From sequence record SRR22947727_319: a stretch of 37,891 bases of DNA; one strand, 5' to 3'. Below, piece by piece: positions 5,801 through 36,507 of this stretch. Position 1 is the first letter of the stretch. Each line of letters opens with the position of its first letter. The notes below the pieces were generated by a model, which was given only the letters and a program-made list of their open reading frames with translations, did not search any database and was not told the DNA's origin. The position numbers and the translations under genes were made by a program.

Positions 5801-5847
5801 CTTTTTTATCCTTTCGACTGTGATAGGGGGCTTGGCGGTTTAAGAGT

Positions 5848-7194
5848 TTAAAATGGAGCCTCCGCGCCGGGTATCCAGCTGGTGCCGGCAAGCGGTACGC
5901 CAGCCATGGCGGCAGCTTCAATCGTGAGGGCGCAGAGATCTTCGGGTTCCAAATTGCGCAAATTGTTTTTTCCGCAGGCGCGGGCGATGGTTTGTGCCTC
6001 GAGCGTCAAAACCTTAAGATAGTTCTTTAACCGTCGGCCAGCTTCGATCGGGTCCAGCCGGGCCATCAGTTCGGGATCTTGGGTTGTGATGCCAGCAGGG
6101 TCATTGCCCTCATGCCAATCATCATAGGCGCCCGCTGTGGTGCCCAATGCCTGATACTCGGCCTCCCATTTGGGATCATTATCGCCCAGCGCAATCAAAG
6201 CGGCGGTTCCGATGGAAACAGCATCTGCCCCCAGCGCCATGGCTTTGGCGACATCCGCGCCATTGCGAATTCCGCCCGAGACGACCAATTGAACTTTTCG
6301 GTGCATCCCCAGATCTTGCAGCGCTTTTACCGCCGGGCGAATGCAGGCCAAAGTGGGCAGGCCGACATGTTCGATGAACACATCCTGCGTGGCCGCTGTG
6401 CCGCCTTGCATCCCGTCAATCACCACAACATCTGCCCCTGCTTTCACGGCAAGCGTTGTATCAAAATATGGGCGGGTTGCGCCTATCTTTACATAAATCG
6501 GTATTTTCCATTGGGTGATTTCGCGCAGTTCGGTCAGCTTGATTTCAAGATCATCGGGGCCGGTCCAATCGGGGTGCCGGCAGGCCGAGCGCTGATCAAT
6601 ACCCTTTGGCAGATTGCGCATATCGGCCACGCGGTCCGATATTTTTTGGCCCAAAAGCATTCCGCCACCGCCGGGTTTCGCCCCTTGCCCGACCACCATT
6701 TCAATTGCATCGGCTTTGCGCAGATCATCGGGGTTCATTCCATAGCGCGAAGGCAAATATTGATAGACCAGCTTATCAGAATGCCCGCGCTCTTCTGCTG
6801 TCATGCCGCCATCGCCGGTGGTGGTTGAAGTTCCCGCTGCTGTGGCGCCGCGCCCCAGCGCTTCTTTTGCAGGCCCAGATAGAGCGCCAAAGCTCATCCC
6901 CGCGATAGTGATCGGAATATCCAGTTTAATCGGATTTTGCGCGTAGCGCGTGCCCAATGTAACCGAGGTATCGCAGGTTTCACGGTAGCCCTCTAAAGGG
7001 TAGCGAGAGACCGAAGCACCCAAGAATAAAAGATCGTCAAAATGGGGAACCGCACGTTTTGCGCCGCCGCCGCGTATGTCATAAATACCGGTCGCCGCAG
7101 CGCGGCGGATTTCGGCATTTACCGCCGGCGTAAATGTGGCGGATTGTATCGGTTCGGTGCGCGGCGCTGCCGCGGTTTCAGGGGGTTTGTTCAT
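5848..7194 (-). CDS. mgsC: N-methylglutamate synthase subunit C (GlxD; FMN-binding glutamate synthase domain)
   Basis: AGMSFGALS, TTGDGGM, GQGAKPGGGGML, RHPDWTGPDDL and SGGIRNGADVAKA; lacks the Fe-S cysteines. Confidence 0.9.
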   Translation of the reverse strand: MNKPPETAAAPRTEPIQSATFTPAVNAEIRRAAATGIYDIRGGGAKRAVPHFDDLLFLGASVSRYPLEGYRETCDTSVTLGTRYAQNPIKLDIPITIAGMSFGALSGPAKEALGRGATAAGTSTTTGDGGMTAEERGHSDKLVYQYLPSRYGMNPDDLRKADAIEMVVGQGAKPGGGGMLLGQKISDRVADMRNLPKGIDQRSACRHPDWTGPDDLEIKLTELREITQWKIPIYVKIGATRPYFDTTLAVKAGADVVVIDGMQGGTAATQDVFIEHVGLPTLACIRPAVKALQDLGMHRKVQLVVSGGIRNGADVAKAMALGADAVSIGTAALIALGDNDPKWEAEYQALGTTAGAYDDWHEGNDPAGITTQDPELMARLDPIEAGRRLKNYLKVLTLEAQTIARACGKNNLRNLEPEDLCALTIEAAAMAGVPLAGTSWIPGAEAPF

Positions 7195-7202
7195 TCTTCA
7201 CC

Positions 7203-7886
7203 TTAATAATCGCCGGCATGATCGACGTCAAAATTATAGAGTTTGCGCGCCGATCCATAGCGCTTGAACTCGCTGGGTTTGGCCGTGCTTTCGGCGCGCT
7301 CAAGCAAAGCCTGCACTTCCGCCAAATCTTCGGGCCGCATCTCTTTTTCCATGCAATCCGCACCTAAGGATTTAACTGCCCCGCGCACGAACAGCTTTGC
7401 CTCATATAGGCTATCGCCAAGCGCTTCGCCCGCGTCACCGCAGACAACCATTGTGCCGGATTGCCCCATAAAGGCCGACATATGTCCGATATTGCCATGC
7501 ACCACGATATCAATCCCCTTCATAGAGATCCCGCAGCGAGAGGAGGCATTGCCTTTGATCACCAAAAGCCCCCCATGGCCCGTTGCCCCTGCATACTGGC
7601 TGGCATCGCCCTCAATAATCACCGTGCCGGACATCATATTTTCCGCAACGCCCGGGCCTACAGAGCCATTAATGCGCAGACGCGCCTGTTTGTTCATTCC
7701 CGCGCAATAATAGCCGGTTGAGCCCTCAACCGTGACGTCAATTGGTGCGTCTAATCCAACCGCAATCGCGTGGGCGCCTTTGGGGTTTAAGATCTGCCAC
7801 GCTGTGAGCTTGGTGGCGGTATTTTGATTTTGCAACTGCGCATTGGCCTGTCGCAGGTCTGTTTGGTCTAGATCGATTATCTGCAT
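7203..7886 (-). CDS. mgsB: N-methylglutamate synthase subunit B (GlxC; GXGXG beta-helix)
   Basis: NPKGAHAIAVG, GYYCAGMN, GVAENMMSG, CGISMKG and GDSLYE repeats; lies between mgsA and mgsC. Confidence 0.9.
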   Translation of the reverse strand: MQIIDLDQTDLRQANAQLQNQNTATKLTAWQILNPKGAHAIAVGLDAPIDVTVEGSTGYYCAGMNKQARLRINGSVGPGVAENMMSGTVIIEGDASQYAGATGHGGLLVIKGNASSRCGISMKGIDIVVHGNIGHMSAFMGQSGTMVVCGDAGEALGDSLYEAKLFVRGAVKSLGADCMEKEMRPEDLAEVQALLERAESTAKPSEFKRYGSARKLYNFDVDHAGDY

Positions 7887-8783
7887 TTAATGGGTCCAAA
7901 AATAGACAGTTGCGGGTTCCGGTTCCCAAATATGGGCGTCGGCTATTCCGGGTAAATTCACCAAAGCCCGATATTCCGAGCCGAAGGCAACATATTGATC
8001 GGTTTCCGCCATCACCGCCGGTTTGCAGGCAATCGGATCGCGCAGCACGCCAAACCCATCCTTGGTGCCAACGACAAAGGTGAAAAACCCGTCCAGATCA
8101 TCAAGGCTGCTTTGCAGCGCTTCGCCCAACGAGCTGCCGTTTTGCATTTTCCAAGTTAAATAGGCCGCGCCTACTTCGGTGTCATTTTCGGTATCGATCA
8201 CCACGCCTTCGCGCTGCAATTGACGGCGCAGCGAATTGTGGTTGGACAAGGATCCATTATGCACCAAGCATTGATCCGGGCCGGTGTTAAAGGGGTGGGC
8301 GCCCATCGTGGTCACCGCGCTTTCGGTGGCCATTCTTGTATGGCCAATGCCGTGGGTGCCTTTCATCAGCGGGATATCAAACCGCTCTGCAACGCTTTTC
8401 GGGAGGCCAATATCTTTGTAAATCTCGATGTTATCGCCCGTGCTCATAACTCTGATGCCGGGATGAGCCCGGCGAATTCGGGCGCGGAGCTCACCGACCT
8501 GGTTTTGCGCAATTTCAAAAACCGCATGGCTGTTTTTGCGCTGCAAAGCTAGCGGCTGCTGGAAGGTTGATTTGAAATCTGCCTCTAGGGCGGCAAAATC
8601 TTGATCCGGGTGTACAGATTGGATGGTGATTTTGGCGCGATCCTCCACAGCCTCGCTATAGATGGCGATCCCTGCGCTGTCGGGCCCGCGATCCGACATA
8701 GTGACGAGCATATCCGTGAGCATGCGCCCCAACGCAGCTTCCAGCGAGGGGTCTTTTAAGAAAAGCCCAACAATTCCGCACAT
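7887..8783 (-). CDS. mgsA: N-methylglutamate synthase subunit A (GlxB; class II Ntn glutamine amidotransferase)
   Basis: N-terminal MCGIVG, RGPDSAG, GIGHTRMATES, HNG and DTE motifs. Confidence 0.9.
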   Translation of the reverse strand: MCGIVGLFLKDPSLEAALGRMLTDMLVTMSDRGPDSAGIAIYSEAVEDRAKITIQSVHPDQDFAALEADFKSTFQQPLALQRKNSHAVFEIAQNQVGELRARIRRAHPGIRVMSTGDNIEIYKDIGLPKSVAERFDIPLMKGTHGIGHTRMATESAVTTMGAHPFNTGPDQCLVHNGSLSNHNSLRRQLQREGVVIDTENDTEVGAAYLTWKMQNGSSLGEALQSSLDDLDGFFTFVVGTKDGFGVLRDPIACKPAVMAETDQYVAFGSEYRALVNLPGIADAHIWEPEPATVYFWTH

Positions 8784-18737: not shown

Positions 18738-19457
18738 ATGCATTTACTTGTTTTACAACATGCTCGGGCAGAACATCCCGGTATTTTCCGCCAATTTTTG
18801 CAAGAAGATGGTCACAGTTGGGATGCGGTGCATCTTGACGAGGGAGAGGCTTTGCCTGCCCTAGAAGGCTATGATGGGCTTTGGGTTATGGGCGGACCGA
18901 TGGATGTTTGGCAAGAAGAGTCGTATCCTTGGCTCATCGCTGAAAAAGCCTTTATTCAAAAGGCCGTTGAAGAAAAAGGCCTGCCGTTTCTTGGGCTTTG
19001 CCTTGGCCATCAATTGCTGGCGGAAGCACTGGGTGGCAGCGTTGGCAAATCGGAAATTCCGGAAATTGGGGTCTGTGAGGTTCAATTAACGGAAGCCGGT
19101 GCCTCCGGAATTTTATGCGATGGATTGCCCGAGCGCATGCATTGCCTGCAATGGCATGGGGCGGAAATTAAAACGCTGCCGGCAGGGGCAAAAGTTTTGG
19201 CAACATCGCCCGATTGCGCCGTGCAAGCGATGAGCTGGGGCCCTCGAGCTTATTCGCTGCAATTTCATATTGAAATAGAACAGAGCACGGTGCAGGACTG
19301 GGGCAAAATTCCAGAATATGAAGCCAGCTTGACCGCGGCGCTGGGCGCCAATGGCCAAAAGACGCTTGAAGCGGATTGCGCTGCGCAAATGCACGCGTTT
19401 AACGCCATGGCCGAGCGTCTATATCTGAATTGGTTGCAAACTGCGGCCCGCGCGTAA
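18738..19457 (+). CDS. Class I glutamine amidotransferase-like protein (stand-alone); possible gamma-glutamyl-amide hydrolase
   Basis: VMGGPM oxyanion loop, GLCLGHQ nucleophile and QFHIE (His-Glu); RBS AGGAGG. Confidence 0.85.
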   Translation: MHLLVLQHARAEHPGIFRQFLQEDGHSWDAVHLDEGEALPALEGYDGLWVMGGPMDVWQEESYPWLIAEKAFIQKAVEEKGLPFLGLCLGHQLLAEALGGSVGKSEIPEIGVCEVQLTEAGASGILCDGLPERMHCLQWHGAEIKTLPAGAKVLATSPDCAVQAMSWGPRAYSLQFHIEIEQSTVQDWGKIPEYEASLTAALGANGQKTLEADCAAQMHAFNAMAERLYLNWLQTAARA

Positions 19458-19467
19458 CGCCGCGCTC

Positions 19468-20148
19468 CTATGCCGCGGCAGCCCGCGTTAGGGATAGGCG
19501 CGCCGTTTCAAGATGTTCTTTCATATTGCTTGCGGCAGCTTCAGGCTCACGGCTGTAAAGTGCGTTTAAGATGCGCCTGTGTTGCGCGTTATATTGCTGT
19601 ATAATGGCAGTGTTCAACGTCAAACTGCGCATTCTTGTCCAATCGCTTTGACCGCGCACTGATGTGATCTGATCCATGATCCAGATTAAAAGAACGTTGC
19701 CAGTGCATTCGACCAAGGCGCGGTGAAACTCTGTATCGGCTTCTGCGAAGGCGGCGGCGTTGTCAACGCTGGCCTCCATTTTTGTGCATAATTGCCCTAA
19801 ACGATCGAAGTCAGCACGGCGACCATGCAGAACAGCCAAGCGGCAAATATGCGGTTCTAGGGCAAAGCGGGCATCAATCAGCTCAAGCGGATTCGCCGTT
19901 TGGATGACGCTGGGCTGGGGAGGCGGCGCCTCAAATGTTACATAAGTGCCGCTGCCTCTTTTTATATCAACCAGATCCGTGTCCATCAATTTGATCAGGG
20001 CTTCGCGCACGGTGCCGCGCGACACGCCATAAGTTTCTGCCATCTCGCGCTCGGCGGGAAGTTTTTCATGCTGGGCAATAACGCCTTGAATGATTTCCCC
20101 ACGCAATATGCTGGCCAGATCAGCCGCATTCATTTTTTTCTTCTTCAC
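19468..20148 (-). CDS. GntR/FadR-family transcriptional regulator (FCD domain)
   Basis: LPAEREMAETYGVSRGTVREAL...RGSGTYV HTH; FCD motifs ARFALE, DTEFH, GN, QHRRI and MKEHL. Confidence 0.92.
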   Translation of the reverse strand: MKKKKMNAADLASILRGEIIQGVIAQHEKLPAEREMAETYGVSRGTVREALIKLMDTDLVDIKRGSGTYVTFEAPPPQPSVIQTANPLELIDARFALEPHICRLAVLHGRRADFDRLGQLCTKMEASVDNAAAFAEADTEFHRALVECTGNVLLIWIMDQITSVRGQSDWTRMRSLTLNTAIIQQYNAQHRRILNALYSREPEAAASNMKEHLETARLSLTRAAAA

Positions 20149-20166
20149 CTACATTAGATCCTTTTT

Positions 20167-20202
20167 TTGGTCCAATTTTGTACCAATGATGGGGAATGTC
20201 AA
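20167..20202 (-). promoter_or_regulatory. gntR promoter with two tandem GntR/FadR-like operator boxes
   Basis: Perfect TTGACA on the minus strand (20202-20197). TTGGTCCAA (20167-20175, dyad TTGG-N-CCAA) and TTGTACCAA (20178-20186) are 11 bp apart and overlap the expected -10. Confidence 0.55.
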
Positions 20203-20334
20203 GTAAAATTCAGAAAGTGGTGCGAAATAGGTTGACTTTTGGTTTGCTTTTATCAAGCTCGGCTTACGTCTGGGCGGAAAAGCTGCCGCATAACGAAGGC
20301 AAAGCAGTTGGAACACTTTTAGGGAGATGGGTGA

Positions 20335-21678
20335 ATGGCGTTCCCCACACATGTAGACTACCTCATCATTGGCGCGGGCATTCATGGGTTATCCACAGCC
20401 TGGCGCTTGGCGGATCGTTTGATCGCTCAGGGTCAAGATGTTGAGGGCCGCGTTGTTGTTTTGGACAAATCGGGGATTGCGTCCGGAGCGTCGGGAATTG
20501 CCTGCGGCGTGGTACGCAATAATTATTTTCAACCTGCGATGCGGGAACTTATGGCGCATTCCGTGGATGTTTGGGAAAGCGATCCGGCCGGCCTCAGCTA
20601 TCATCCTGTGGGCTATATGCAGATTTCTTGCGAATCGATGCGTGAAGACGTGACCTCGATTTATGAGCAACAGCGAGCAATCGGTTATGAAAGCGAGTTT
20701 ATCGAGGGTGCGGATGCTTGCGATTCTTACATGAAATCCATGTTTAACGATTGGCAGGCGCAAGGCATTACCTCGGTCCTGCATGAGAAGCGGGGGGGGT
20801 ATTCGAACAACACCAAATCGATGTACGGGCTGGCCAAGAAGGTCGAAGAGCGCGGGGTTCGGATTATCTCTGGTGTCGAGGTGAAGGGTCTGACAAGCGA
20901 AAGCGCCAGTTCTAGCATCAAATCTGTTGAGACATCCCATGGCACGCTCTCTTGCGCGCATGTGGTTGTGGCGCCCGGTCCCTGGGCCCGAGATTTCTGG
21001 GATATGCTGGGCATGCCCAAAAAGATCAGCCTAAAAGATTTAACGGGAAAGATGCATCACGACATCGATATGTGGCGATTCTGGCAACTTGAAGAAGGCG
21101 TTTTGCAATTGCCGCCTGAGGTGCTGCAAACCAATGATGGCAAAATACCACCAGTGATACATGTCGATACCGATGCCCCGCTACACTCTTGCGTGGATGG
21201 CAGCGTAATTACCGAAGATCTGTGGGGCATTTATTACAAACCTGATTGGCATTTTGACGGTATTCAAGGGGGCGCCTCGCCCTATAAAGTGGATACGCCG
21301 GTTGAGCGGGTTGCAATTGACCCTTACGGCCCCTCGTCTCCTGAATTTGTGGCCTCTGACGGTTTTGCTCATATGTGGGTCTCGGCCTTGGCGCATTGCC
21401 ATCAGCGCTTTGAAGGCATGATGGGTAAATATCACCGTGAAGCATCCGGTGGCATCGGCTGTTTCACCGCCGATAGCTTTCCGGTTTTTGACCATTTTAA
21501 TGAGAATGCCACGCTGATTGCGGATAGTAACCATGGGTGGAAAATGCTGGGCGTCGGACATTTGATAGCCGATGAAGTGCTTGGCGAAAAGCAGAGCTTG
21601 TTAGAGCCTTTCCGCTTTGACCGTTTCGAAAAAGGAAATCTGCACCCAGTATCAAACAGCCCATATCCTTGGAGTTAG
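20335..21678 (+). CDS. FAD-dependent amine oxidoreductase (DAO/DadA/SoxB-like family), substrate unknown
   Basis: GAGIHG Rossmann motif, GASGIACGVVRNNY (compare SoxB RNTTIIRSNY), VVAPGPW, TADSFP and NHGWKM; RBS AGGGAG. Confidence 0.85.
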   Translation: MAFPTHVDYLIIGAGIHGLSTAWRLADRLIAQGQDVEGRVVVLDKSGIASGASGIACGVVRNNYFQPAMRELMAHSVDVWESDPAGLSYHPVGYMQISCESMREDVTSIYEQQRAIGYESEFIEGADACDSYMKSMFNDWQAQGITSVLHEKRGGYSNNTKSMYGLAKKVEERGVRIISGVEVKGLTSESASSSIKSVETSHGTLSCAHVVVAPGPWARDFWDMLGMPKKISLKDLTGKMHHDIDMWRFWQLEEGVLQLPPEVLQTNDGKIPPVIHVDTDAPLHSCVDGSVITEDLWGIYYKPDWHFDGIQGGASPYKVDTPVERVAIDPYGPSSPEFVASDGFAHMWVSALAHCHQRFEGMMGKYHREASGGIGCFTADSFPVFDHFNENATLIADSNHGWKMLGVGHLIADEVLGEKQSLLEPFRFDRFEKGNLHPVSNSPYPWS

Positions 21679-21743
21679 TGGCTGGTGAAATCAAAAATAT
21701 AAAAAAAGGCAAAAAAATAAAGATATAAAAGGGGAGAATTAAA

Positions 21744-23222
21744 GTGGCCGAAATGGACCTTGAACGTTTTGTGGAAGCGCCTGGGCGCGATGCGAAGATC
21801 AAAGAAGTGCGTAAGATGATCGATTCCCTCGGCATCGAATATCTGTATCTTCAGTTTGTCTCTGTAACCGGAAAAATTATGGGCAAAGGCATTCCCTCGG
21901 ATCATTGGGAAACCGTTGCTAAAAAAGGCTTTCAGCTGGTTTATGGCGCAACCGTCAATTTGTTCACGGATCGCGCGGGAAATTATATGGGATATGGCCC
22001 CGAGGCTGCGGAATTGGTTGGTATTCCTGAGCCTGAGACGTTTATGCAATTGCCTTGGGCACCGGAAATTGGACGGTTTTATTGCACTTTGTTTCGCAAC
22101 CGCGAAGAGAAAGTGGATCCTGGCGCTTATTTGACCGCAGACTCTCGGGGCAATCTGCGCCGCATGCATGAAGAATTTAAGGCCAAGCATGGGCGCCAGC
22201 TGCGCATCGGCACCGAGCCCGAAATGATGTGGCTGAAATTTGACGAGAATGGCAAGCCAAAAGACGGATTTTCAAAACCTTATTGCTATCACATTGATCA
22301 ATTTGAAAGCCTGCGCCCCGTGACCATGAAGGTTATGGAATACACTCGTAAAATGGGTTTGGATATGATTCAGGGCGATCATGAAGATGCGCCTGGTCAG
22401 CTTGAATTAAACTGGATGTTTGATGATGTGCTGCGCAATGCCGACCGTCTGACAACTTACCGTCAGATCTGCGCGCAAGTGGCGCGCGAGCATGGTATTT
22501 TTGCATGCTTCATGACGAAACCGTTCATGGGCGTGTCAGCCTCTGGGTGCCACCATAACATGTCGCTCTGGCGGGGCGGCGAAGATCAGTTTGTCAAATG
22601 CGGAAATGATCCGGATAACCTGCCGGGCATGCGTGATAATTACATGTATGTAAAGGGCGGCAGCAACACGTTTATGCCCGATGATGATGATCCGCAAATG
22701 CCGGGCGCCGAAGGGCTGGTTGCGATTGGCGGCGTGGTGAAAAACCTGCAAGCGTTGACCGCGATTGGTTGTTCGACGGTGAATTCTTACCGCCGCTTGT
22801 GGGATACGGGCTTTTGGGCGCCGGTATTTGCCGATTGGGGCTTCCAAAACCGGACCACGGGCTTGCGCGTCTCGGCGCCGGGCCGGTTCGAATATCGCTC
22901 GGTGGATTCAATGGTCAACCCGTATTTGATGGGCACAACATTACTGGCCGCAATGGATGATGGGATTGATAACAGCATCAGCCCGGGCGAGCCTGAAGAG
23001 CGCAATATTTATGAGGCGATCAAAGAGGGCAAAGAAGTCAAGAAATTGCCAATGTCTTTGGGTGAGGCGCTGAGCTATCTCGAGCAAAGCGAAGTGGTGC
23101 GCCGCGGCATGCCGGGCGAAATGTATCGTTTGTACCATGAATATAAATATGACGAATGGGCCCGCTTCATGTCCACGTCAACCGATTGGGACAATGAGAT
23201 GTATATGGAGTGCTTGCCATAA
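21744..23222 (+). CDS. Glutamine-synthetase-like gamma-glutamyl-amine ligase (second, divergent GmaS-like enzyme)
   Basis: GTEPEM, DHEDAPGQLELN, FMTKP, SGCHHN, NSYRRL, GFWAP, NRTTGLRV and FEYR; GTG start with RBS GGGGAG. Confidence 0.88.
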   Translation: MAEMDLERFVEAPGRDAKIKEVRKMIDSLGIEYLYLQFVSVTGKIMGKGIPSDHWETVAKKGFQLVYGATVNLFTDRAGNYMGYGPEAAELVGIPEPETFMQLPWAPEIGRFYCTLFRNREEKVDPGAYLTADSRGNLRRMHEEFKAKHGRQLRIGTEPEMMWLKFDENGKPKDGFSKPYCYHIDQFESLRPVTMKVMEYTRKMGLDMIQGDHEDAPGQLELNWMFDDVLRNADRLTTYRQICAQVAREHGIFACFMTKPFMGVSASGCHHNMSLWRGGEDQFVKCGNDPDNLPGMRDNYMYVKGGSNTFMPDDDDPQMPGAEGLVAIGGVVKNLQALTAIGCSTVNSYRRLWDTGFWAPVFADWGFQNRTTGLRVSAPGRFEYRSVDSMVNPYLMGTTLLAAMDDGIDNSISPGEPEERNIYEAIKEGKEVKKLPMSLGEALSYLEQSEVVRRGMPGEMYRLYHEYKYDEWARFMSTSTDWDNEMYMECLP

Positions 23223-23298
23223 GGCATTTCCAAAATTGTAATGCGGCGGGCTAACCCCGCCAAACTTCTGACGCAACCCGATGGAGGTGGGATGTAAT

Positions 23299-24234
23299 AT
23301 GTGTGGTATCGCAGGATTAATTCATAAGGGCAAAAGCTCGAATGTGGGGGGGGAGATGACAGCAATGTTGCAGGCCCTCAAGCATCGCGGGCCGGATTCG
23401 ACGGGCTACGCTGTCTATGGCGAGCCAACCGAAGGCGATTATGTGCTTCGTTTGAAAGTGGCGGAAGCCGAAGATATGGCCAAAGGCCGTGGCATTCATC
23501 AGGTTTTGGCGGATCGCATCACGGAGGTGGAAGCGATCATGCAAGGGCATGGCGTGACGGTGAAAACGAAAGAGCACGCAACCGAATATGCTCTGCGCTA
23601 TCTGATTTCCCATGAGGGGGATACCACCGCACTGGCCGAGCATATTGAAGAAACCGATGGCGTTGAAATTTTATCGCTTGGAAATGGCCTAGAGCTGATC
23701 AAAGATTTGGGCGATGCGTCAGATGTGGCCGGGCTTTATGGTCTGAATGAATTTAACGGAACGCATGGCATTGGCCATACGCGGATGGCAACCGAGTCGG
23801 ATGTGGATATTCGCTCCGCGCACCCCTATTGGGCCTTTCCCTATAATGACGTGAGCGTTGTACATAACGGACAAATCACAAATTATTGGATTATGCGCCG
23901 CCAGATGGAGCGCAAAGGCCATCGCTTTATGTCAAATTGTGACAGCGAACTTTTGGCTGTTTACACTGCGAACAATTTAGCAAATGGCGTAACGCTTGAG
24001 CAATCATTGCGCAATTCAATCGAAGAAATTGACGGCGTCTTTACCTATTTGGTCGCTACCAAAGATCAACTGGGCATGGCCAAAGATACGATGGCTGCAA
24101 AGCCATTGGTGCTTTACGAAAGCGATGATTTGATCGCTATGGCATCAGAAGAGGTCGCTATTCGGGCCATTCTTCCCCAAGAAATTGACACTTACGATCC
24201 CTATGATGAGGAGGTACGCGTATGGCAAGCCTAA
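23299..24234 (+). CDS. Class II (Ntn) glutamine amidotransferase, MgsA/GlxB paralogue
   Basis: Start reassigned to ATG 23299 so that Cys is residue 2 (MCGIAG; RBS GGAGG at 23283); RGPDSTG, GIGHTRMATES, HNG and CDSE motifs. Confidence 0.88.
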   Translation: MCGIAGLIHKGKSSNVGGEMTAMLQALKHRGPDSTGYAVYGEPTEGDYVLRLKVAEAEDMAKGRGIHQVLADRITEVEAIMQGHGVTVKTKEHATEYALRYLISHEGDTTALAEHIEETDGVEILSLGNGLELIKDLGDASDVAGLYGLNEFNGTHGIGHTRMATESDVDIRSAHPYWAFPYNDVSVVHNGQITNYWIMRRQMERKGHRFMSNCDSELLAVYTANNLANGVTLEQSLRNSIEEIDGVFTYLVATKDQLGMAKDTMAAKPLVLYESDDLIAMASEEVAIRAILPQEIDTYDPYDEEVRVWQA

Positions 24235-25091
24235 GCGATACTGAACTAAAGCAAATGAGTCAGGAAGAGCGGGTGACCGCGCTTGGAATGCGCACCGAGG
24301 CACTGACGGGAAAATCGCTTTACATTGAGTTTGATCCGGATGCGGAAGAGCGCTTCACATACCCTTGGGCGCCCGAAGTCGATTACAATAAGCGCACCGA
24401 GCTTGATACAGATGAAATGACCACCACCGAGGTGAATTCCAAAATTCGGGCCCTCATGGCCGAAGGCTATGGCACGATTGTGCTGAAAAATCCGCGCGGA
24501 AAGCATTCGCTGGGCGTGGGGATCCTAAGCCGGTTGAATTTAATTATTGAGGGCTCGTTGGGCTATTTTGGTGTTGGGTTGATCGATGGCCCGAATGTGC
24601 GCATCAACGGGCGCGTTGGCTGGTCTTGCGGCGAAAATATGATGGCTGGAACGATTGTCATTGAAAAAAACGCCGGTTCGACCTTTGGCGCTGCGATCCG
24701 CGGCGGGGATCTGGTCTGTCGGGGGTCGGTTGGCTCTCGGACTGGTATTGACCAAAAAGGCGGTACGATACTTGTCGGTGGTGACACGGGGGCGTTATCG
24801 GGCTTTATGATGCAACGCGGTCGGATGGTTGTGTGTGGAAATGCGGGTAAAAACCTTGGCGATTCAATGTATGACGGCACCATTTTTGTGGGCGGTAAGA
24901 TTCAATCGCTTGGAGTGGATGCAATCGAGGCGGAATTGACTGACCTTGATCGCGACTGGCTCACCGCAAAGCTGACCCAATATGGCATGATGCCCGATAA
25001 GGGTGTTGACCATTTTACAAAGATTGTCGCTGGGAAACAGCTTTGGAACTACGACAATCTTGAACCCAATGAGAAGAAAATAATTCTGTAA
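24222..25091 (+). CDS. GXGXG beta-helix protein, MgsB/GlxC paralogue with an N-terminal extension
   Basis: NPRGKHSLGVG, GYFGVG, GENMMAG and GDSMYDG repeats; overlaps the upstream gene by 13 bp. Confidence 0.85.
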   Translation: MASLSDTELKQMSQEERVTALGMRTEALTGKSLYIEFDPDAEERFTYPWAPEVDYNKRTELDTDEMTTTEVNSKIRALMAEGYGTIVLKNPRGKHSLGVGILSRLNLIIEGSLGYFGVGLIDGPNVRINGRVGWSCGENMMAGTIVIEKNAGSTFGAAIRGGDLVCRGSVGSRTGIDQKGGTILVGGDTGALSGFMMQRGRMVVCGNAGKNLGDSMYDGTIFVGGKIQSLGVDAIEAELTDLDRDWLTAKLTQYGMMPDKGVDHFTKIVAGKQLWNYDNLEPNEKKIIL

Positions 25092-25113
25092 GTCTAAGGA
25101 AAGGATAATACCT

Positions 25114-26478
25114 ATGGCTGACGGTGATATGCCAAGAAAGAAAGCGCTGGATCGTGATGTAAACCGCATCGGTGACAGCTTTGTATTCCCACCCCGTGTG
25201 ATGGATGACATCCATATCAAATCCGAGCTTGGACGCTATCGGATGCGCGGCTTCTCGTTGTTCAAGAAAATTCCCCACTGGGATGATCTAACCTTCTTGC
25301 CGGGCACGTTGACGCGGTTCGTGATCGAAGGGTATCGCGAAAAATGTGAAACCAAAACGGTGATTGGTCCCCGCGCAAAGCGTCCGCTTGAGCTGGATAT
25401 TCCAATCTATATCACAGGGATGAGCTTTGGGGCGCTGAGCTATGAGGCGAAAACCGCGCTGGCGCGTGGCGCCACAATGGCGGGTACCGCAACTTGCTCG
25501 GGTGAAGGGGGGATGATCCCGGATGAGCGCCGCTATAGCTCAAAATGGTTTTATCAGTGCATTCAATCGCGCTACGGGTTCAACCCAAACCACTTGGTCT
25601 TGGCGGATGGCTGCGAGTTTTTTATCGGACAGGGCTGTAAAGTGGGCCTTGGTGGGCATTTGATGGGGCAAAAAGTGACCGATCAGGTGGCTGAAATGCG
25701 CTCATTGCCCGCAGGCATTGACCAACGTTCACCCGCGCGCCACCCTGATTGGCTAGGCCCTGATGATCTGGCGCTTAAGATTCAAGAGATCCGCGAAGCC
25801 ACAGATTGGCAAATTCCAATCCAGTTAAAACTGGGTGCGGCGCGGGTTTATGATGATGTTCGTATGGCGGTGAAATGCGATCCAGACTCGATTTACATCG
25901 ATGGGATGGAAGGCGGCACAGGCGCCGGGCCGCATTTGGCTACCGAAGACACAGGGGTGCCCGGAATGGCCGCGATCCGTCAGGCGCGCAAAGCCATCGA
26001 TGATCTTGGCAAACGCGGCGAAATCAGCTTGATTTATGCAGGCGGCATCAGAAACGGTGCCGATGTTGCGAAAGCCATTGCGCTGGGCGCAGATGCGATC
26101 GCCATCGGGCATTCCGCGATGATGGCCTTGAATTGCAACAAGGATATCCCGGAAGCCAATTATCCCGAAGAAATCGGTGCAGAGCCCGGATATTGCTATC
26201 ACTGCCATACCGGGCGCTGCCCTGTTGGCGTGGCGACGCAAGATCCCGCGCTGCGCACCCGTCTTGATCCGGATGAAGCTGCCGAGCGCGTGTATAACTT
26301 TTTGCACACGCTGACGATCGAAGCGCAGCTTTTTGCCCGCGCCTGCGGCAAAACCAATCTGCATAGCCTTGAGCCTGAGGATCTGGCCGCGTTGACGATG
26401 GAAGCCTCTGCCATGGCAGGCGTTCCTTTAGCTGGCACGAACCACACTGTGGGCGTCGAAGATTACCACCATCTCTAA
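25114..26478 (+). CDS. FMN-binding glutamate-synthase-domain protein, MgsC/GlxD paralogue retaining Fe-S cysteines
   Basis: GMSFGALS, SGEGGM, RHPDWLGPDDL, AGGIRNGADVAKA and CYHCHTGRCPVGVATQ. Confidence 0.88.
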   Translation: MADGDMPRKKALDRDVNRIGDSFVFPPRVMDDIHIKSELGRYRMRGFSLFKKIPHWDDLTFLPGTLTRFVIEGYREKCETKTVIGPRAKRPLELDIPIYITGMSFGALSYEAKTALARGATMAGTATCSGEGGMIPDERRYSSKWFYQCIQSRYGFNPNHLVLADGCEFFIGQGCKVGLGGHLMGQKVTDQVAEMRSLPAGIDQRSPARHPDWLGPDDLALKIQEIREATDWQIPIQLKLGAARVYDDVRMAVKCDPDSIYIDGMEGGTGAGPHLATEDTGVPGMAAIRQARKAIDDLGKRGEISLIYAGGIRNGADVAKAIALGADAIAIGHSAMMALNCNKDIPEANYPEEIGAEPGYCYHCHTGRCPVGVATQDPALRTRLDPDEAAERVYNFLHTLTIEAQLFARACGKTNLHSLEPEDLAALTMEASAMAGVPLAGTNHTVGVEDYHHL

Positions 26479-26490
26479 GGAGGAGTTACA

Positions 26491-26904
26491 ATGGCTGGAA
26501 CACAATATCGCGGATCTGAAATCAAAGACGTCAATCAGTTTTTGAATGATGCTGATGGTTTGGAAAGCGAACGCGAAAAAGAAATTGGTCAGCATATTGG
26601 CTATCGGTATGATGTGAACTTGGTGCCCGATAAAAGCCGGATCACGCCCTATTTAGCCAAATATATGGAAATTATGGGCTGGGATGATCTGAACTGGCTG
26701 GAAGATATTCATATGGGCTATGAAGAGGGGGCGCCGGCGGTGTTTGAACGCAACAATAATGGCTGGGTGCGTATCCCCAGCAGTATTGATCTGCCGGATA
26801 ATCAACAGGATCGGGATATGATTGCACGCGAATTGCTCTTGAAATTTCAGATGTCTGATCGCCATCCTTTGGCCAATCTGCGCAAAGCCTATATGAAGTT
26901 TTAA
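26491..26904 (+). CDS. Hypothetical soluble protein (137 aa)
   Basis: Ideal RBS AAGGAGGAG, 12 bp after the mgsC paralogue; operon-like spacing on both sides; no family recognised. Confidence 0.8.
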   Translation: MAGTQYRGSEIKDVNQFLNDADGLESEREKEIGQHIGYRYDVNLVPDKSRITPYLAKYMEIMGWDDLNWLEDIHMGYEEGAPAVFERNNNGWVRIPSSIDLPDNQQDRDMIARELLLKFQMSDRHPLANLRKAYMKF

Positions 26905-26908
26905 GGTC

Positions 26909-27766
26909 TTGCTGCGCCCGCTGAATATTGCATGTCTGCAAACGCATCCCAAAGCCTCGATATCTGAGGCGATTGCGGAGGCGATGCCACTGGCAGAGGC
27001 AGCTGCAAAAGCGGGCGCAGAATTTATTTTTTTGCCCGAATATTGCGGTGGATTGGCCAGCGAAGGCGCCGCGCTGCGGCCCCCCGTTGCACAAGAAAAA
27101 GACCACCCGATGCTGCGGGTGTTTCAAGCTTTTGCACAAAACTATCAGGTTTGGGTTATGTTGGGCTCGATCGCTGTAACCGCGCCTGATGCAAAAATAC
27201 TAAACCGTGGCTACATCATTGACTCCGCAGGTAATGTTCAAAGCCATTATGATAAAATACATCTGTTCGACGTAGAAATTTCGGAACAAGAAGTATATCG
27301 GGAAAGCGCGCATGTCACGCCCGGCGCTGCGGTTCAAGTGACGCCCGCCTGTGGTATGCAGTTGGGCCATACGATCTGTTATGATCTGCGGTTTCCAAAA
27401 CTGTTCCGCGATTTGGCGCAAGCAGGGGCAGAGGCGATTGCGGTGCCGGCCGCGTTTGTAAAGAAAACAGGGCAGGCGCATTGGCATGTTCTCAACCGCG
27501 CGCGGGCGATTGAAAATGGATGCTTTATCATCGCCCCGTGTGCGGTAGGGCCTATTCCGGGGCGGGGTGAAAGTTACGGTCACAGCTTGATTATAGACCC
27601 TTGGGGACGGGTTTTGGCTGATGGCGGTGAAGATCAGGGCTTTATTCAAGCCACGATTGACCTATCTCAGGCGCGGCGGGTGCGCTCAAAAATTCCAAGC
27701 TTAACGCATGACCGGGCGTATAGCCTGCAGTCGGCAGAAATGACAGAAAGATACCAGGATCTATGA
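26909..27766 (+). CDS. Carbon-nitrogen hydrolase (nitrilase superfamily; Nit1/YbeM/omega-amidase-like)
   Basis: Catalytic triad motifs FLPEY, YDKIHLFD and TICYDLRFP, plus RARAIEN and YGHSLIIDPWG; TTG start. Confidence 0.9.
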   Translation: MLRPLNIACLQTHPKASISEAIAEAMPLAEAAAKAGAEFIFLPEYCGGLASEGAALRPPVAQEKDHPMLRVFQAFAQNYQVWVMLGSIAVTAPDAKILNRGYIIDSAGNVQSHYDKIHLFDVEISEQEVYRESAHVTPGAAVQVTPACGMQLGHTICYDLRFPKLFRDLAQAGAEAIAVPAAFVKKTGQAHWHVLNRARAIENGCFIIAPCAVGPIPGRGESYGHSLIIDPWGRVLADGGEDQGFIQATIDLSQARRVRSKIPSLTHDRAYSLQSAEMTERYQDL

Positions 27767-28347
27767 GTTCAGTTGCATCCCTTTTGGGCGATAGCTACGC
27801 CAACCACCCTTTGAAAGACCGGTTTTTAAAATGGCAATGCCATTGCCGGCAAATGATGATGCGTGATAATATGGGCCGCCCGGATGCTACAATCATGCCC
27901 GAAGTTTATTTGAAAGACGACGCGCAAGCGATGGGAACCATTATCACCATTATGAACAAACTGCCGGCCTATTCTGAAACACCCGAGATGCTGCATATGG
28001 CGCGTAAAACCAACGATCCTGCGCAGCGCCGCAATCAAGCGATCCAATATTTTTCCGCAACCTTTTACCAAAAGCACAAACAGTTTTCGGATATCTTAAC
28101 CTCGACATTTCCGCCCCATTCCCCAGGGGCGGCCAAAATTAGGAGCGCGGAAACCTGTCGTCTGGTTTTTGCAGCCTATGCGCAAAGCTTTGAAATTCGG
28201 TGTAAAGTCTGGAAACTCACCCCCAAAAACCTTTTGAATCAATCGACAATCGCGCATAATCGCTTGTTCAACCCAGAGCTGCCGGGCAATACGATTGTTT
28301 TGGGCTTTGAACCGGATTGGTCAAGCTCGCAAGAAATGAAGGTTTGA
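27763..28347 (+). CDS. Hypothetical protein (194 aa)
   Basis: ATGA-coupled to the nitrilase gene and fills the gap to DUF1330; no confident family. Confidence 0.75.
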   Translation: MSSVASLLGDSYANHPLKDRFLKWQCHCRQMMMRDNMGRPDATIMPEVYLKDDAQAMGTIITIMNKLPAYSETPEMLHMARKTNDPAQRRNQAIQYFSATFYQKHKQFSDILTSTFPPHSPGAAKIRSAETCRLVFAAYAQSFEIRCKVWKLTPKNLLNQSTIAHNRLFNPELPGNTIVLGFEPDWSSSQEMKV

Positions 28348-28355
28348 AAAAAGCT

Positions 28356-28649
28356 ATGGCCTACGGATATGTGATTGCGCAAATCAACATTCATGACCCA
28401 GAAGCCTACGCCACCTATGTGAAAATGGTTCAACCCACTTTGGATCTTTTTGGTGGTCAGTTTTTGGTACGGGGCGGAAAAGCCCGCAGCTTTGAAGGCG
28501 CGCCGCCGGGCGATCGGCATGTTATCATTCAATTCCCCAGCTATGACAAAGCGATGAATTGGTATGCCTCAGATGCCTATGCGCCAGCCAAGAGGCAAAG
28601 GCTCTCTGCCTCATCCAGCGTTCAAACCATCGTTGAAGGTGTTCTGTAA
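28356..28649 (+). CDS. DUF1330-family dimeric alpha/beta barrel protein
   Basis: GYVIAQI..HDPEAY..Y, GGQFLVRGG, EG, IIQFPS..A.NWY.S..Y and IVEG. Start reassigned to ATG 28356. Confidence 0.85.
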   Translation: MAYGYVIAQINIHDPEAYATYVKMVQPTLDLFGGQFLVRGGKARSFEGAPPGDRHVIIQFPSYDKAMNWYASDAYAPAKRQRLSASSSVQTIVEGVL

Positions 28650-28693
28650 GCCCTTTTATTGGAATCTGCACATCGGTTTTTACGCAGTTTTTT

Positions 28694-29635
28694 TTAAAGC
28701 GTTGAGGCGTTTGGTTGCTGATATCTTTGCCGGCTCGCAGATACTTCCAAAAGCCAATTTTCAACCCGATCGCGTTCTGGAAAACTAGGGCCATCGCTTG
28801 CTTTCAGCAAATAATAGCCATGATCTGTTCTGGCCGAAATGTTACCCAATGGTCGGATAAGTTTGTTATCATCAAGCAGATGATCTACCAAATGGGCCCA
28901 TCCAAGCGCAATTCCCAATCCGTTTACGGCAGCTTCAATCGCAAGAGGATAGGTGTTCAAGCTGACTGTTTCTTCAAATTCAGCCGCCGCGTGATGCATC
29001 AAATCAAACCAAGCGCGCCAGGTCATCCACTCGGTATGCATGGTGTGAATGCCGATTAAGGAGCTTTGCGACATTGCGGCCAATGTGGTGATGCCGGGGT
29101 TTTTGCGCAAAAATTCCGGCGAACAGACCGGGAATATTGTTTCGCCAAATAATAACTCTGCCGAATACCCCGACCAATGCCCATTGCCCCGTAAAATTGT
29201 TAAATCGACATCTTCCGCCAGACATTCATCATCGTCATCTGAGGACAGTAAGTTGATGTTAACCGGTTCGTAAAGCGCGTTGAAACGGGGTAATTTGGGC
29301 ATCAAATAAAGCCCCGCCACCGAGTTGGTTGCCGCGATTGTCACAGCATTGTTTAACGTGGCTTCCAGAAGGTTTTGTGAGAGGGCTCGCAACTGATCAA
29401 GCAAGGGTAAAATATCATCAAAAAACCTTTGCCCACGCGGGGTTAGGTGAATCGAGCGATGCCCGCGATTGAATAAATTTATTTTATAATGCAGCTCTAA
29501 AAGCCGAACTTTCCTGCTGATGGCCGTTTCGCTGATGTTCAGTGCTTTAGAAGCACCTGCAAAACTGTTGTTAACCGCCGCAGATTCAAATGCAAGTAGA
29601 TAATCTAGGCGTGGTAATACATTGTTTTTATTCAT
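28694..29635 (-). CDS. LysR-family regulator (GcvA-like)
   Basis: LPRLDYLLAFESAA...SFAGASKALNISETAISRKVRLLE HTH, PVCSP and AAVNGLGIALG. Start reassigned to ATG 29635; divergent from tmoX. Confidence 0.9.
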   Translation of the reverse strand: MNKNNVLPRLDYLLAFESAAVNNSFAGASKALNISETAISRKVRLLELHYKINLFNRGHRSIHLTPRGQRFFDDILPLLDQLRALSQNLLEATLNNAVTIAATNSVAGLYLMPKLPRFNALYEPVNINLLSSDDDDECLAEDVDLTILRGNGHWSGYSAELLFGETIFPVCSPEFLRKNPGITTLAAMSQSSLIGIHTMHTEWMTWRAWFDLMHHAAAEFEETVSLNTYPLAIEAAVNGLGIALGWAHLVDHLLDDNKLIRPLGNISARTDHGYYLLKASDGPSFPERDRVENWLLEVSASRQRYQQPNASTL

Positions 29636-34122: not shown

Positions 34123-36507
34123 ATGAATACACCCGTTTTATTTTCAACACCCCAAACAAAAGCAGGGGTTCGCAAGCCCGGTATGATGGTTTTGCCACAA
34201 GGGGTTGAAAGGCATCCCGTGCCCGGAGGGGGCAGCCGTGCCGTACCAATTTTTGCGGGTGATCAGATTACGCTGCAAGATGTGGAAGGTTTGCAACCCA
34301 TTGAAATGGTATTTTTTGGGCCCGACAAACGATCAGATGCCGCGATGTTGGGGGCCAAAGGCGGGCGCAGCCCAGAGGGGTTGATTGCCGCGCTTACCGG
34401 GCACCCATCTGGTAAAAAAGTAATCGCTGCGCTTGAGAAAACAGGGTTTTCAATCGCCGATGCCGATGCCAGTCTCGTGTTTGAAGGCGGCTCGCGTGCG
34501 GGAGAGACGGCAAGTTTTCAGGCCGTATCGGATGGATTATTGATCATATGCGCCGCGGGTGGCGCGATGGATGCGCATCAGCAATGGGCCCCAAGCGATG
34601 TGGTGTTGTTTATCACGCGGATTAATAAGCGGCCCTTGAAAGACATGTCATTGGTGCATGACCCACTGGCCGACCCTTTGGTGAGTTTGCATATTCAACC
34701 AGGCGAGGCAAAACCTTATGAGGTGAAGGCGGGGGAATATATTCAAGTTTTAGACGTGCAGGGCAGAGAATGCAGCGATTTTCAGGCCTTTTCGCGCCGC
34801 GCTTTGGACGCTGGATTGGAGCGCGATATCGATCCCACAACCACGCGGTCTTTGATGGGGGCGCTTTACCCCAAGCCAGGGCTCTTGGCAAAATACTTTA
34901 GCGTTGATCAGGAACCTTTGGTCGAGATTATCCAAGACACGGTGGGCCGCCATGATACATTTGGATTGGCCTGTACCGCGCGGTATTACGAAGATCTTGG
35001 CTATCCGGGCCATGTCAACTGTTCGGATAATATCAACCTTGAAATGCAGGCCTATGATGTGCGTCCGCGGGGCGGCTGGCCAGCGATAAACTTCTTTTTC
35101 AATACGATTTTAGACGAGACCAATGCGATTTCGATGGATGAGCCTTATTCGCGGCCCGGAGATTATGTTTTGATGCGGGCGCTCACGGATTTAGTTTGTG
35201 TTTCAACGGGTTGTCCTTGTGATGTTGATCCAGCAAATGGCTGGCAGCCAAGCGATATTCAAGTCTGGACCTATCGCGAAAGTGAAGATTTCAAGCGCTC
35301 GATTGGCTGGCGCAAAACTCCGGGGGCTGATGTGGAAGAAACGAAAAAAACTGGGTTTCACGATTGTTTTGCCCGCCATACGCGCAATTTTGTGGAATAT
35401 GCCGGATATTGGCTGGCGCAGGACATGATGCATCATGGCAGCATAGCTGAATATTGGGCCGCGCGCGAAAAAGCGGTTATTATGGATCTATCGCCGCTTC
35501 GAAAATATGAAGTGACGGGCCCTGATGCCGAAGCGCTGATGCAGCTATCTATCACGCGGGATGTGAAAAAAATTCCGGTCGGCGGCATCGTCTATACCGC
35601 GATGTGCTATGAACATGGTGGTATGATTGACGATGGCACGTTGTTTCGCTTGGGGGATACCAATTTTCGGTGGATCGGCGGCAATGACCAATCCGGGCTT
35701 TGGCTGCGCAAACAAGCCGAGGAGCGTGGCCTAAACGCATGGGTGCGTTCTTCCACGGACCATCATTGCAATGTGGCGGTGCAAGGGCCGTTGTCGCGCG
35801 AAATTCTGAAAGATGTGATTTGGACGCCCCCCGCGCAGCCCACTGTTGAAGAGCTGCAATGGTTTCGCTTTTCGATTGGCCGGATTGGCGGCTTTCATGG
35901 CCCCTCCGTGGTGCTCAGTCGGACCGGATATTCTGGAGAGCTGGGCTATGAGGTTTTTTGCCATCCGAAAGACGCAGAACAGGTTTTTGACGCGATTTGG
36001 GCCGCAGGTGCGCCGCATGGGCTTACGCCTTTTGGGCTTGCTGCGCTTGATATGGTGCGGATTGAGGCTGGGTTGATCTTTGCTGGCTCTGAATTTGATG
36101 ATCAAACCGATCCAATGGAGGCAGGCATTGGTTTTACGGTGCCTTTGAAAAGTAAAACTGATGAATTTATCGGCCGCGCAGCGCTCGAGCGGCGCAAAGC
36201 CCATCCGCAAAAGAAACTTGTCGGGCTTGAATTGGAGGGCGGTGTTGTGCCAACGCCGGGCGATTGTATCCATATCGGGAAGCCACAAGTGGGCGTTGTG
36301 ACCTCGGCGATGCGCTCGCCTGTTTTGGGCAAAGTGATTGCTTTGGCACGGGTAGATTTGGCCCATGCCGAGATTGGCACTGAGTTGGAAGTTGGGCGGC
36401 TGGATGGGGACCAACTGCGCTTACCAGCTAAAATTGTTGCATTCCCGCATTTCGATCCGAAGAAAGAGCGGGTGAAGGGCAATTATGAGGGCGTGCGAGG
36501 CGGGTGA
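34123..36507 (+). CDS. tdm: Trimethylamine N-oxide demethylase (DUF1989 plus GcvT aminomethyltransferase domains)
   Basis: DUF1989 motifs GRECSDF, GRHDTFGLAC, HVNCSDN and CPCDVD, followed by a GcvT fold (DLSPLRK, RTGYSGELGYE, RIEAG). Confidence 0.9.
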   Translation: MNTPVLFSTPQTKAGVRKPGMMVLPQGVERHPVPGGGSRAVPIFAGDQITLQDVEGLQPIEMVFFGPDKRSDAAMLGAKGGRSPEGLIAALTGHPSGKKVIAALEKTGFSIADADASLVFEGGSRAGETASFQAVSDGLLIICAAGGAMDAHQQWAPSDVVLFITRINKRPLKDMSLVHDPLADPLVSLHIQPGEAKPYEVKAGEYIQVLDVQGRECSDFQAFSRRALDAGLERDIDPTTTRSLMGALYPKPGLLAKYFSVDQEPLVEIIQDTVGRHDTFGLACTARYYEDLGYPGHVNCSDNINLEMQAYDVRPRGGWPAINFFFNTILDETNAISMDEPYSRPGDYVLMRALTDLVCVSTGCPCDVDPANGWQPSDIQVWTYRESEDFKRSIGWRKTPGADVEETKKTGFHDCFARHTRNFVEYAGYWLAQDMMHHGSIAEYWAAREKAVIMDLSPLRKYEVTGPDAEALMQLSITRDVKKIPVGGIVYTAMCYEHGGMIDDGTLFRLGDTNFRWIGGNDQSGLWLRKQAEERGLNAWVRSSTDHHCNVAVQGPLSREILKDVIWTPPAQPTVEELQWFRFSIGRIGGFHGPSVVLSRTGYSGELGYEVFCHPKDAEQVFDAIWAAGAPHGLTPFGLAALDMVRIEAGLIFAGSEFDDQTDPMEAGIGFTVPLKSKTDEFIGRAALERRKAHPQKKLVGLELEGGVVPTPGDCIHIGKPQVGVVTSAMRSPVLGKVIALARVDLAHAEIGTELEVGRLDGDQLRLPAKIVAFPHFDPKKERVKGNYEGVRGG

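Follow-up and report, generated by a model that had tools for sequence, protein, structure and literature searches.

In Methyloversatilis, Methylocella and Ruegeria pomeroyi, monomethylamine (MMA) is processed by the gamma-glutamylmethylamide/N-methylglutamate pathway, which is encoded by gmaS, mgsABC and mgdABCD. Dimethylamine (DMA), the product of the trimethylamine N-oxide (TMAO) demethylase Tdm, is the substrate of a different system, DmmDABC, which is reported to require O2 and NADPH (PMC5520151), and growth of R. pomeroyi on DMA is reported to require dmmA (PMC13390433). The dmmDABC genes are described as absent from SAR11 and many marine bacteria, and the DMA step has been termed a genetic 'bottleneck', the idea being that bacteria that lack dmm release DMA (PMC5520151). 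It has also been reported that TMAO can serve the SAR11 strain HTCC1062 as nitrogen source for growth, for which an unknown isoenzyme of Dmm was suggested (PMC8918994). The subject here is an operon at positions 19,468–28,649 of sequence SRR22947727_319, a stretch of 37,891 nt that is referred to below as the window. The operon, termed the module, is best explained as an uncharacterised sister of the gamma-glutamylmethylamide/N-methylglutamate pathway that would carry DMA onward in tdm-containing bacteria without Dmm.

The GmaS-MgsABC-MgdABCD system and the module have the same general design. Both have a ligase of the glutamine synthetase (GS) fold with a tryptophan in the flap, together with a split glutamate-synthase-like enzyme that consists of a class-II glutamine amidotransferase (GATase II), a GXGXG subunit and a flavin mononucleotide (FMN)-domain subunit, and both are located in methylated-amine islands. 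The window itself contains a complete canonical gmaS-mgsABC set 11.5 kb from the module (about 12 kb in the sequence-only reading, an earlier interpretation of the window made without database searches). The ligases of the two sets are 28% identical, the MgsA proteins 33%, the MgsB proteins 41% and the MgsC proteins 54%, which agrees with the earlier view that the module is an old paralogue and not a recent duplicate. The differences in gene order and cofactor ligands that had been pointed out are also present: the ligase, here called GSL, is first in the module and last in the canonical order mgsA-mgsB-mgsC-gmaS, and the MgsC-like subunit (MgsC2) has Fe-S cysteines, whereas canonical MgsC has none. 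In addition, GSL is under the cut-off of TIGR03105, the GmaS equivalog model. Two small proteins, unk137 and unk194, are added throughout, and a D-amino-acid-oxidase (DAO)-family oxidoreductase containing flavin adenine dinucleotide (FAD), a nitrilase-superfamily amidase (Nit) and a DUF1330 protein are added often. Lastly, the distribution of the module complements that of dmm.

DmmDABC resembles the module in its position, as it too is found in tdm/tmm/mgd islands, no more than about 25 kb from tdm, but in an alternative set of genomes. There is, however, no protein homology between the two. Dmm consists of GcvT-like, DmmA-like, Fer2/NAD reductase and haem-demethylase-like proteins, and none of the subunit domains (GcvT-like, PF22290, Fer2/NAD reductase, PF11927) was found by Pfam searches in the module operon. 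Dmm is also not ATP-dependent, in contrast to the module as it is proposed to function.

It had been predicted that the operon should co-occur with tdm and be anti-correlated with dmm, and this is the pattern found in two samples of genomes. The marker for dmm is a PF11927 match of 213–243 bits in an open reading frame (ORF) of about 350–400 aa. The marker was validated in one genome (G027), where it is part of a cluster of GcvT-like, DmmA-like, Fer2/NAD reductase and PF11927 proteins. The family sample comprises 301 genomes, about one per genus. There are 28 GSL matches at E ≤ 1e-100 in this sample, 25 of them at ≥73% identity, two partial and one a 51% paralogue, and all 28 genomes that have a match have tdm. 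The dmm marker is present in 41 genomes and a Tdm orthologue (54–100% identity) in 69. Among these 69, the module is found in 28 (27 by GSL and one, G097, by a 92% identical MgsC2 at a contig start) and dmm in 39, including a genome with the gene split over contig ends (G039). No genome has both, G060 having dmm plus only a 50–51% paralogue of GSL, and two genomes, in 250 and 370 contigs (G164 and G210), have neither. Three genomes that are 86–91% complete have dmm and no tdm.

The class sample consists of 401 alphaproteobacteria, with tdm (E ≤ 1e-200) in 29. One of these, G001, has a GSL 100% identical to that of the window and is used as a stand-in for the window's species; the other 28 come from 19 families. 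GSL at 64–74% identity is present in 23 of the 28, which represent 16 families, and a dmm-type gene in three (G399, G649 and G679). Again none has both, and two, which are 75% and 94% complete, have neither. MgsC2 accompanies GSL in all 23 genomes, at 78–93% identity and about 3 kb from it, and in 11 of the 23 GSL is ≤20 kb from tdm. In two genomes of 1.3–1.4 Mb, both 99% complete, a stretch of about 20 kb contains MgsC2, canonical MgsC and tdm. Their size is an indirect pointer to SAR11; no named SAR11 record was seen among cluster members. In the stand-in genome dmm is absent by two markers, the context of PF11927 and PF22290, for which there is no match (115 bits in the control, G027).

It should be pointed out that PF11927 proteins are not confined to dmm clusters. 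A type that scores 145–200 bits occurs in most genomes of the family, and some PF11927 match is present in 48 of 61. The only PF11927 gene of the stand-in genome, which is haem N-demethylase alpha-like, encodes 267 aa and stands alone beside glnA-glnB (L090:8729-9532). A PF11927 gene in G658 was considered as a dmm candidate and rejected; it is 28% identical, has no dmm neighbours and is another paralogue.

The ligase shows the clearest functional signatures. GSL relatives are present in at least 595 species genomes, and identity ranges from 63 to 100% in all genomes and loci analysed. The catalytic DHEDAPGQLE and other GS motifs do not vary among the 81 sequences compared, and neither do D212 and E221, the equivalents of Asp177 and Glu186. 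The flap has tryptophan in place of the catalytic glutamate of GS in all 81 as well, and the same change is reported in the GmaS structure paper (PMC7948447). GSL falls outside the GmaS equivalog. It scores 295.8 bits, in two stretches, on TIGR03105, under the cut-off of 469.6 (661.3 for the canonical copy), and 209.8 bits on the PuuA equivalog model, where the cut-off is 650. Archaeal and Bacillus GSI are matched at E 2e-56, compared with about 1e-51 for the solved GmaS chains. According to the GmaS structure paper, GmaS accepts DMA with a Km of 16 mM, vs 27 µM for MMA (PMC7948447). Turnover of DMA by GmaS indicates that the chemistry is feasible on the GS fold, and GSL is a candidate ATP-dependent gamma-glutamyl-dimethylamide synthetase.

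The second signature is in MgsC2. In alignments with large chains of glutamate synthase (GOGAT; 7mfm, 2vdc), its Cys341, Cys364 and Cys369 coincide with the three cysteines before the CPVGVATQ motif that are the ligands of the 3Fe-4S cluster of GOGAT. A fourth cysteine, Cys361, is within a 17-residue insert. Each of the four is conserved in all 59 orthologues, whereas the corresponding residues of canonical MgsC in the window are D, Y, W and D. The MgsA2, MgsB2 and MgsC2 proteins of the module (together Mgs2) parallel the GOGAT large subunit and its split archaeal-type forms in having three domain types and in aligned cluster cysteines and CPVGVATQ. Mgs2 differs from GOGAT in consisting of separate polypeptides and in the 17-residue insert and fourth cysteine before the motif. 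Nor does the operon have a GltD-like gene, and the score on NF008730 is 135.5 bits against a cut-off of 1047.

GntR, GSL, MgsA2B2C2, unk137 and unk194 form the core of the operon, which is syntenic in 51–52 of the 52 related loci that allow the comparison. The best 80 loci from the at least 595 species that carry GSL were examined; they include Roseovarius, Ruegeria, Sulfitobacter, SAR116 and metagenome-assembled genomes of Rhizobiaceae and Hyphomicrobiales, among others. Of these loci, 59 have ≥7.5 kb downstream of GSL, and they divide into 52 with the arrangement of the window (variant A), six with a P450 variant (variant B) and one with GntR, GSL and Nit only. MgsA2, MgsB2, MgsC2 and unk137 are each present in 52 of 52 variant A loci and unk194 in 51, followed by Nit (42) and DUF1330 (15). 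The trimethylamine monooxygenase gene tmm is found after the operon on the same strand in 26 of the 52, in 25 of these 4.4–5.9 kb after GSL. A GntR orthologue is upstream in all 49 variant A loci that have ≥3 kb upstream.

In the P450 variant, seen in nine of the 80 loci, a cytochrome P450 gene is directly behind a GSL that is 84–89% identical (L061, with the P450 at 11501-12712, L027, L035, L039, L054, L073, L082, L085 and L087). A divergent MetX-like alpha/beta hydrolase is present in all nine and a choline-dehydrogenase-type GMC oxidoreductase in eight, and GntR, DAO, unk137, unk194 and Nit are found in none of the nine. Five P450-variant genomes have no MgsC2 orthologue, four having only canonical MgsC at 51–53% and the fifth no match, and a dmm-type PF11927 gene is likewise absent from these five. 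GSL is the constant element, combined with two alternative oxidoreductive back-ends, the GOGAT-like Fe-S/FMN enzyme or a P450. Both arrangements are found where dmm is missing. This is most simply explained by a capture of DMA by GSL in the form of a gamma-glutamyl amide, with subsequent removal of the methyl groups on the glutamate scaffold.

There are precedents for such an arrangement. In the isopropylamine (Ipu) and putrescine (Puu) pathways, the amine is first attached to glutamate by a GS-like ligase, the tagged form is then the substrate of an oxidase or P450, and a class-I amidotransferase-type hydrolase frees glutamate. The P450 arrangement follows this logic of tagging with glutamate and then oxidising, and a class-I amidotransferase-like neighbour, which is a possible gamma-glutamyl-amide hydrolase, fits the same pattern. 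It is present in the window beside GntR, in 23 of 49 variant A loci and in four of nine P450-variant loci. The module of the window differs from Ipu and Puu in that the GOGAT-like enzyme takes the place where a P450 would be.

Taken together, gene content, conservation, ligand residues and complementarity with dmm point to an ATP-dependent gamma-glutamyl capture of DMA followed by demethylation on glutamate, a reading that we consider moderately probable. In the first step GSL, using ATP, would ligate DMA to the gamma-carboxyl group of glutamate. The Mgs2 complex would then act as a split glutamate synthase: MgsA2, an N-terminal nucleophile (Ntn) amidotransferase, would free the amine into the complex, and MgsC2, with FMN and an Fe-S cluster, would fix it on 2-oxoglutarate by reduction of an iminium, which would yield N,N-dimethylglutamate. 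MgsB2 would be the GXGXG component of the complex, to which unk137 probably belongs as an additional subunit. Electrons would enter by way of the Fe-S cluster, possibly from unk194. The methyl groups would subsequently be removed on glutamate by flavoprotein dehydrogenases, i.e. DAO if present and otherwise MgdABCD, and the nitrilase-type amidase may serve to clean up keto-acid forms of gamma-glutamyl amides. The route in the window would probably pass through N,N-dimethylglutamate, and in the P450 variant the amide may be demethylated directly to gamma-glutamylmethylamide.

The sequence-only reading had arrived at a similar scheme, and its main elements stand, namely the old paralogue, a ligase outside the GmaS equivalog and the tdm/dmm pattern. 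What does not hold is the FAD oxidoreductase as the general demethylation step. A DAO orthologue, nearly always immediately upstream of GSL, is found in only 33 of 50 genomes that have the module, and in 18 of 49 loci; DAO is common but dispensable.

Several findings weigh against the DMA interpretation. The absence of DAO from 17 of the 50 genomes means that demethylation as proposed is not a fixed feature. The complementarity with dmm also reflects few independent events. A FastTree tree of the Tdm proteins from the 69 family genomes separates a mostly-module clade from an all-dmm clade, and the module and dmm states need a minimum of only three changes on it: the deep split, a solitary dmm genome, and a clade of four dmm genomes whose sister is the window's pair. 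Inheritance of the whole island thus explains much of the family-level pattern. Furthermore, the module is not dependent on tdm, as a Tdm homologue (E ≤ 1e-60) is missing from 13 of the 37 GSL-containing genomes among the 401 of the class, including five that are 100% complete. Four tdm-less loci contain a self-contained unit of GntR and DAO-GSL-MgsA2B2C2-unk137, and in a fifth GSL adjoins mgdABCD. Canonical MgsC is also present in only 10 of the 23 tdm-containing class genomes that have the module. The 13 without it suggest that the module may also handle MMA instead of simply feeding the canonical set, and they are as compatible with a pathway for methylamines in general as with one specific for DMA. 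The published sensing of DMA by the GntR-type regulator TmoR of R. pomeroyi (PMC13390433) cannot be used as support either: the GntR of the window was considered as a TmoR orthologue and rejected, since its identity to the GntR next to tmm in an island of the dmm type is only 32%. As to expression, window positions 16000–29800 are matched at 95–99% identity by contigs that two studies obtained from RNA libraries, and one contig of 3.7 kb spans MgsB2 to unk194. These are compatible with transcription in seawater, but they may include DNA and cannot show induction.

The main alternative would make the module an isofunctional, Fe-S-dependent second form of the N-methylglutamate pathway for MMA only, with the conversion of DMA to MMA performed otherwise or DMA excreted. 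The excretion of DMA is in keeping with the published 'bottleneck' idea of bacteria that lack dmm and release DMA (PMC5520151), and the three-subunit architecture and the ligase are as in the canonical set. The 13 tdm-containing genomes with no canonical MgsC, where the module must replace it, and the tdm-less genomes that have a self-contained DAO-GSL-Mgs2-unk137 operon also speak for an MMA pathway. This alternative does not, however, explain why none of 42 dmm-containing genomes (39 of the family and three of the class) has the module, when the canonical set does coexist with dmm. The P450 variant is left unexplained as well, and so is the presence of both sets in the window's species, which implies that the module is not simply redundant for MMA. 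We consider an MMA-only function rather unlikely, though it is the main rival.

A function with another amine, such as ethylamine, ethanolamine, N-methylhydroxylamine or a further alkylamine, would make the module a passenger in trimethylamine islands. GS-like ligases exist for many amines, as exemplified by PuuA, IpuC and theanine-forming enzymes, and this range, together with the 13 of 37 GSL-containing genomes that have no tdm and the 50–51% paralogue beside another P450 outside the island of G060, speaks for such a function. On the other hand, a passenger would not be expected to lie ≤20 kb from tdm in 11 of 23 genomes drawn from 16 families, to be directly followed by tmm in half of the variant A loci (26/52) and to show a distribution that excludes dmm, and we regard this alternative as improbable. 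It is very improbable that the operon is a specialised GS/GOGAT pair which re-assimilates ammonium from methylated amines: the Fe-S cysteines are conserved as in GOGAT and GSL is no closer to GmaS (E about 1e-51) than to the GSI of archaea and Bacillus (E 2e-56), but the flap glutamate is replaced by tryptophan in all 81 sequences, as reported for GmaS (PMC7948447), the stand-in genome has an ordinary glnA-glnB, and the operon is without a GltD-like subunit.

The paralogue in G060 merits separate mention. It is at L202:7756-13211, where its neighbours are another GS-like gene and a P450 gene whose product shares 52% identity with the P450 of variant B. It is outside the tdm island of this dmm-containing genome and may serve another amine.

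One of the tdm-less genomes (G528) has another neighbour of note. A gene resembling the beta subunit of dimethylformamide (DMF) amidase (PF20254, 786 aa) is present 1.7 kb from the module (L199:1400-3760), and the genome has five such genes. DMF amidase makes DMA from dimethylformamide. PF20254 is found in 3/7 genomes with GSL vs 3/44 without it, and in 4/10 tdm-less genomes with GSL, but it is beside the module only once and the numbers are too small to be given weight.

If DMA capture by the module is correct, a bolder and tentative proposal can be made, which we hold to be possible. The module would be the missing DMA route of the many marine tdm-containing bacteria without Dmm, including those with SAR11-sized genomes of 1.3–1.4 Mb, and it would run via the undescribed metabolites gamma-glutamyl-dimethylamide and N,N-dimethylglutamate. 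The latter would be the product of an Fe-S/FMN 'dimethylglutamate synthase' that is driven by ferredoxin or a flavoprotein and has unk137 as a new small subunit, and the P450 variant would demethylate the gamma-glutamyl amide directly. Known chemistry would thereby gain a GOGAT-like enzyme with a secondary amine as its substrate. In the sea, methylated amines make up a sizeable pool of nitrogen, and they are also precursors of aerosols. The presence of the module in 23 of 28 sampled tdm-containing alphaproteobacteria beyond the window's species would change metagenome-based estimates of DMA turnover, and GSL, being 63–100% conserved, would serve as a marker gene.

Full-text literature searches, which do not cover supplementary tables, yielded no paper that describes the operon, gamma-glutamyl-dimethylamide or N,N-dimethylglutamate in microbes. 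Within the same limits no characterised operon of such composition was found, in line with what had been surmised initially. The R. pomeroyi genes SPO1554-1561 were considered as a possible counterpart and rejected, as SPO1557 is fhs-1.

The features of the module and its associated genes are given in Table 1. All ten ORFs of the co-directional nine-gene run and its divergent GntR are where they had been placed, with the domains that had been assigned to them (Pfam, NCBIfam). Gaps and overlaps between the operon genes range from -13 to 65 bp. The start of MgsA2 is probably the ATG at 23299, which is favoured in that it gives the N-terminal Met-Cys that an Ntn amidotransferase requires. DUF1330 probably starts at 28356, which fits the 96–97-aa orthologues. 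The top NCBIfam match of DAO is SoxB, at 74 bits and far under the cut-off. The best NCBIfam match of Nit is the deaminated-glutathione amidase NF043013, with 188.1 bits against a cut-off of 500; membership of the PF00795 superfamily is clear.

Table 1. Positions in the window of the module genes, the divergent intergenic region and the island genes discussed with them
Feature	Position	Strand	Basis or remark
Canonical mgsA-mgsB-mgsC-gmaS (context, outside module)	4484..8783	-	GmaS 661.3 bits on TIGR03105, cut-off 469.6
Class-I amidotransferase-like protein beside GntR (associated)	18738..19457	+	PF00117, PF07722
GntR/FadR-type regulator, divergent	19468..20148	-	PF00392 and PF07729 (GntR+FCD)
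Divergent intergenic promoter/operator region	20149..20334	.	Sequence inspection
DAO-family FAD oxidoreductase (accessory)	20335..21678	+	PF01266, residues 8-226
GSL, GS-fold ligase (Gln-synt_C)	21744..23222	+	PF00120
MgsA2, class-II (Ntn) amidotransferase subunit	23299..24234 (ORF 23281-24234)	+	GATase_6/7
MgsB2, GXGXG subunit	24222..25091	+	PF01493
MgsC2, FMN glutamate-synthase-domain subunit (Glu_synthase/FMN)	25114..26478	+	PF01645
unk137, 137-aa protein	26491..26904	+	No Pfam/NCBIfam match
Nit, nitrilase-superfamily amidase (accessory)	26909..27766	+	PF00795 (CN_hydrolase)
unk194, 194-aa split-barrel-like protein	27763..28347	+	No Pfam/NCBIfam match; fold from model
DUF1330 protein (accessory)	28356..28649 (ORF 28317-28649)	+	PF07045
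tdm (TMAO demethylase, dimethylamine-producing step; context)	34123..36507	+	794-aa ORF, named from ORF and orthologues

The unk137 and unk194 ORFs are real genes, as both are conserved over 26–32 orthologues with a mean column identity of 87% and 57%, respectively. Structural modelling of unk194 (pLDDT 92.3) predicts a PNPOx-like split barrel, a class that binds FMN, FAD, F420 or haem. The model aligns with 3db0_B at a VIA Z of 11.1, with a root mean square deviation of 2.7 over 118 of 124 residues (Foldseek E 5.6e-4). Thirty chains are at Z ≥ 8, and all 31 listed rows at Z 8.0 or more belong to the PNPOx-like fold class. The unk137 family has 317 representatives at 50% clustering; its model is poor (pLDDT 65). 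Atlas searches with unk194 and unk137 gave no match at 0.9 or more, and complex prediction of MgsC2 with unk137 gave a score of 0.00, which is no verdict either way.

The intergenic region between GntR and DAO contains an imperfect inverted repeat, GGTCCAA-TT-TTGTACC, which was spotted by eye; a repeat finder reported no inverted repeat in this region. Neither promoter nor terminator scans gave results above those of shuffled controls.

The window as a whole is a methylated-amine island around the module. In addition to the canonical set and tdm, it contains genes for an Amt-type transporter, mgdABCD, an AraC/DJ-1 regulator, the class-I amidotransferase, tmoXVW and tmm, the latter with 801 bits on the trimethylamine monooxygenase equivalog. 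The tmoX-tmoV-tmoW stretch (29000–34000) has a G+C content of 42–46%, compared with ~52% elsewhere. No RNA-library contig is found on tmoXVW (29823–34000), and one contig switches to a different sequence at 29837, which points to a strain difference, so that the gap in coverage allows no conclusion. On the basis of the low G+C content and the diverging contig, the transporter block looks strain-variable or exchanged. A LysR ORF on the minus strand (28694–29806) has a 40-bp overlap with the start of tmoX. Its helix-turn-helix motif begins at residue 68, and the real start is therefore probably after the listed TTG.

Flanking the island, positions 2–4402 of the window encode a thioesterase, an acyl-CoA dehydrogenase, an ADP-forming acyl-CoA synthetase-like protein and an enoyl-CoA hydratase. 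A second Tdm-like family, 41–50% identical to Tdm, is present in at least 15 genomes of the family (e.g. G300:C16:107873-110143), some of which are without a true tdm.

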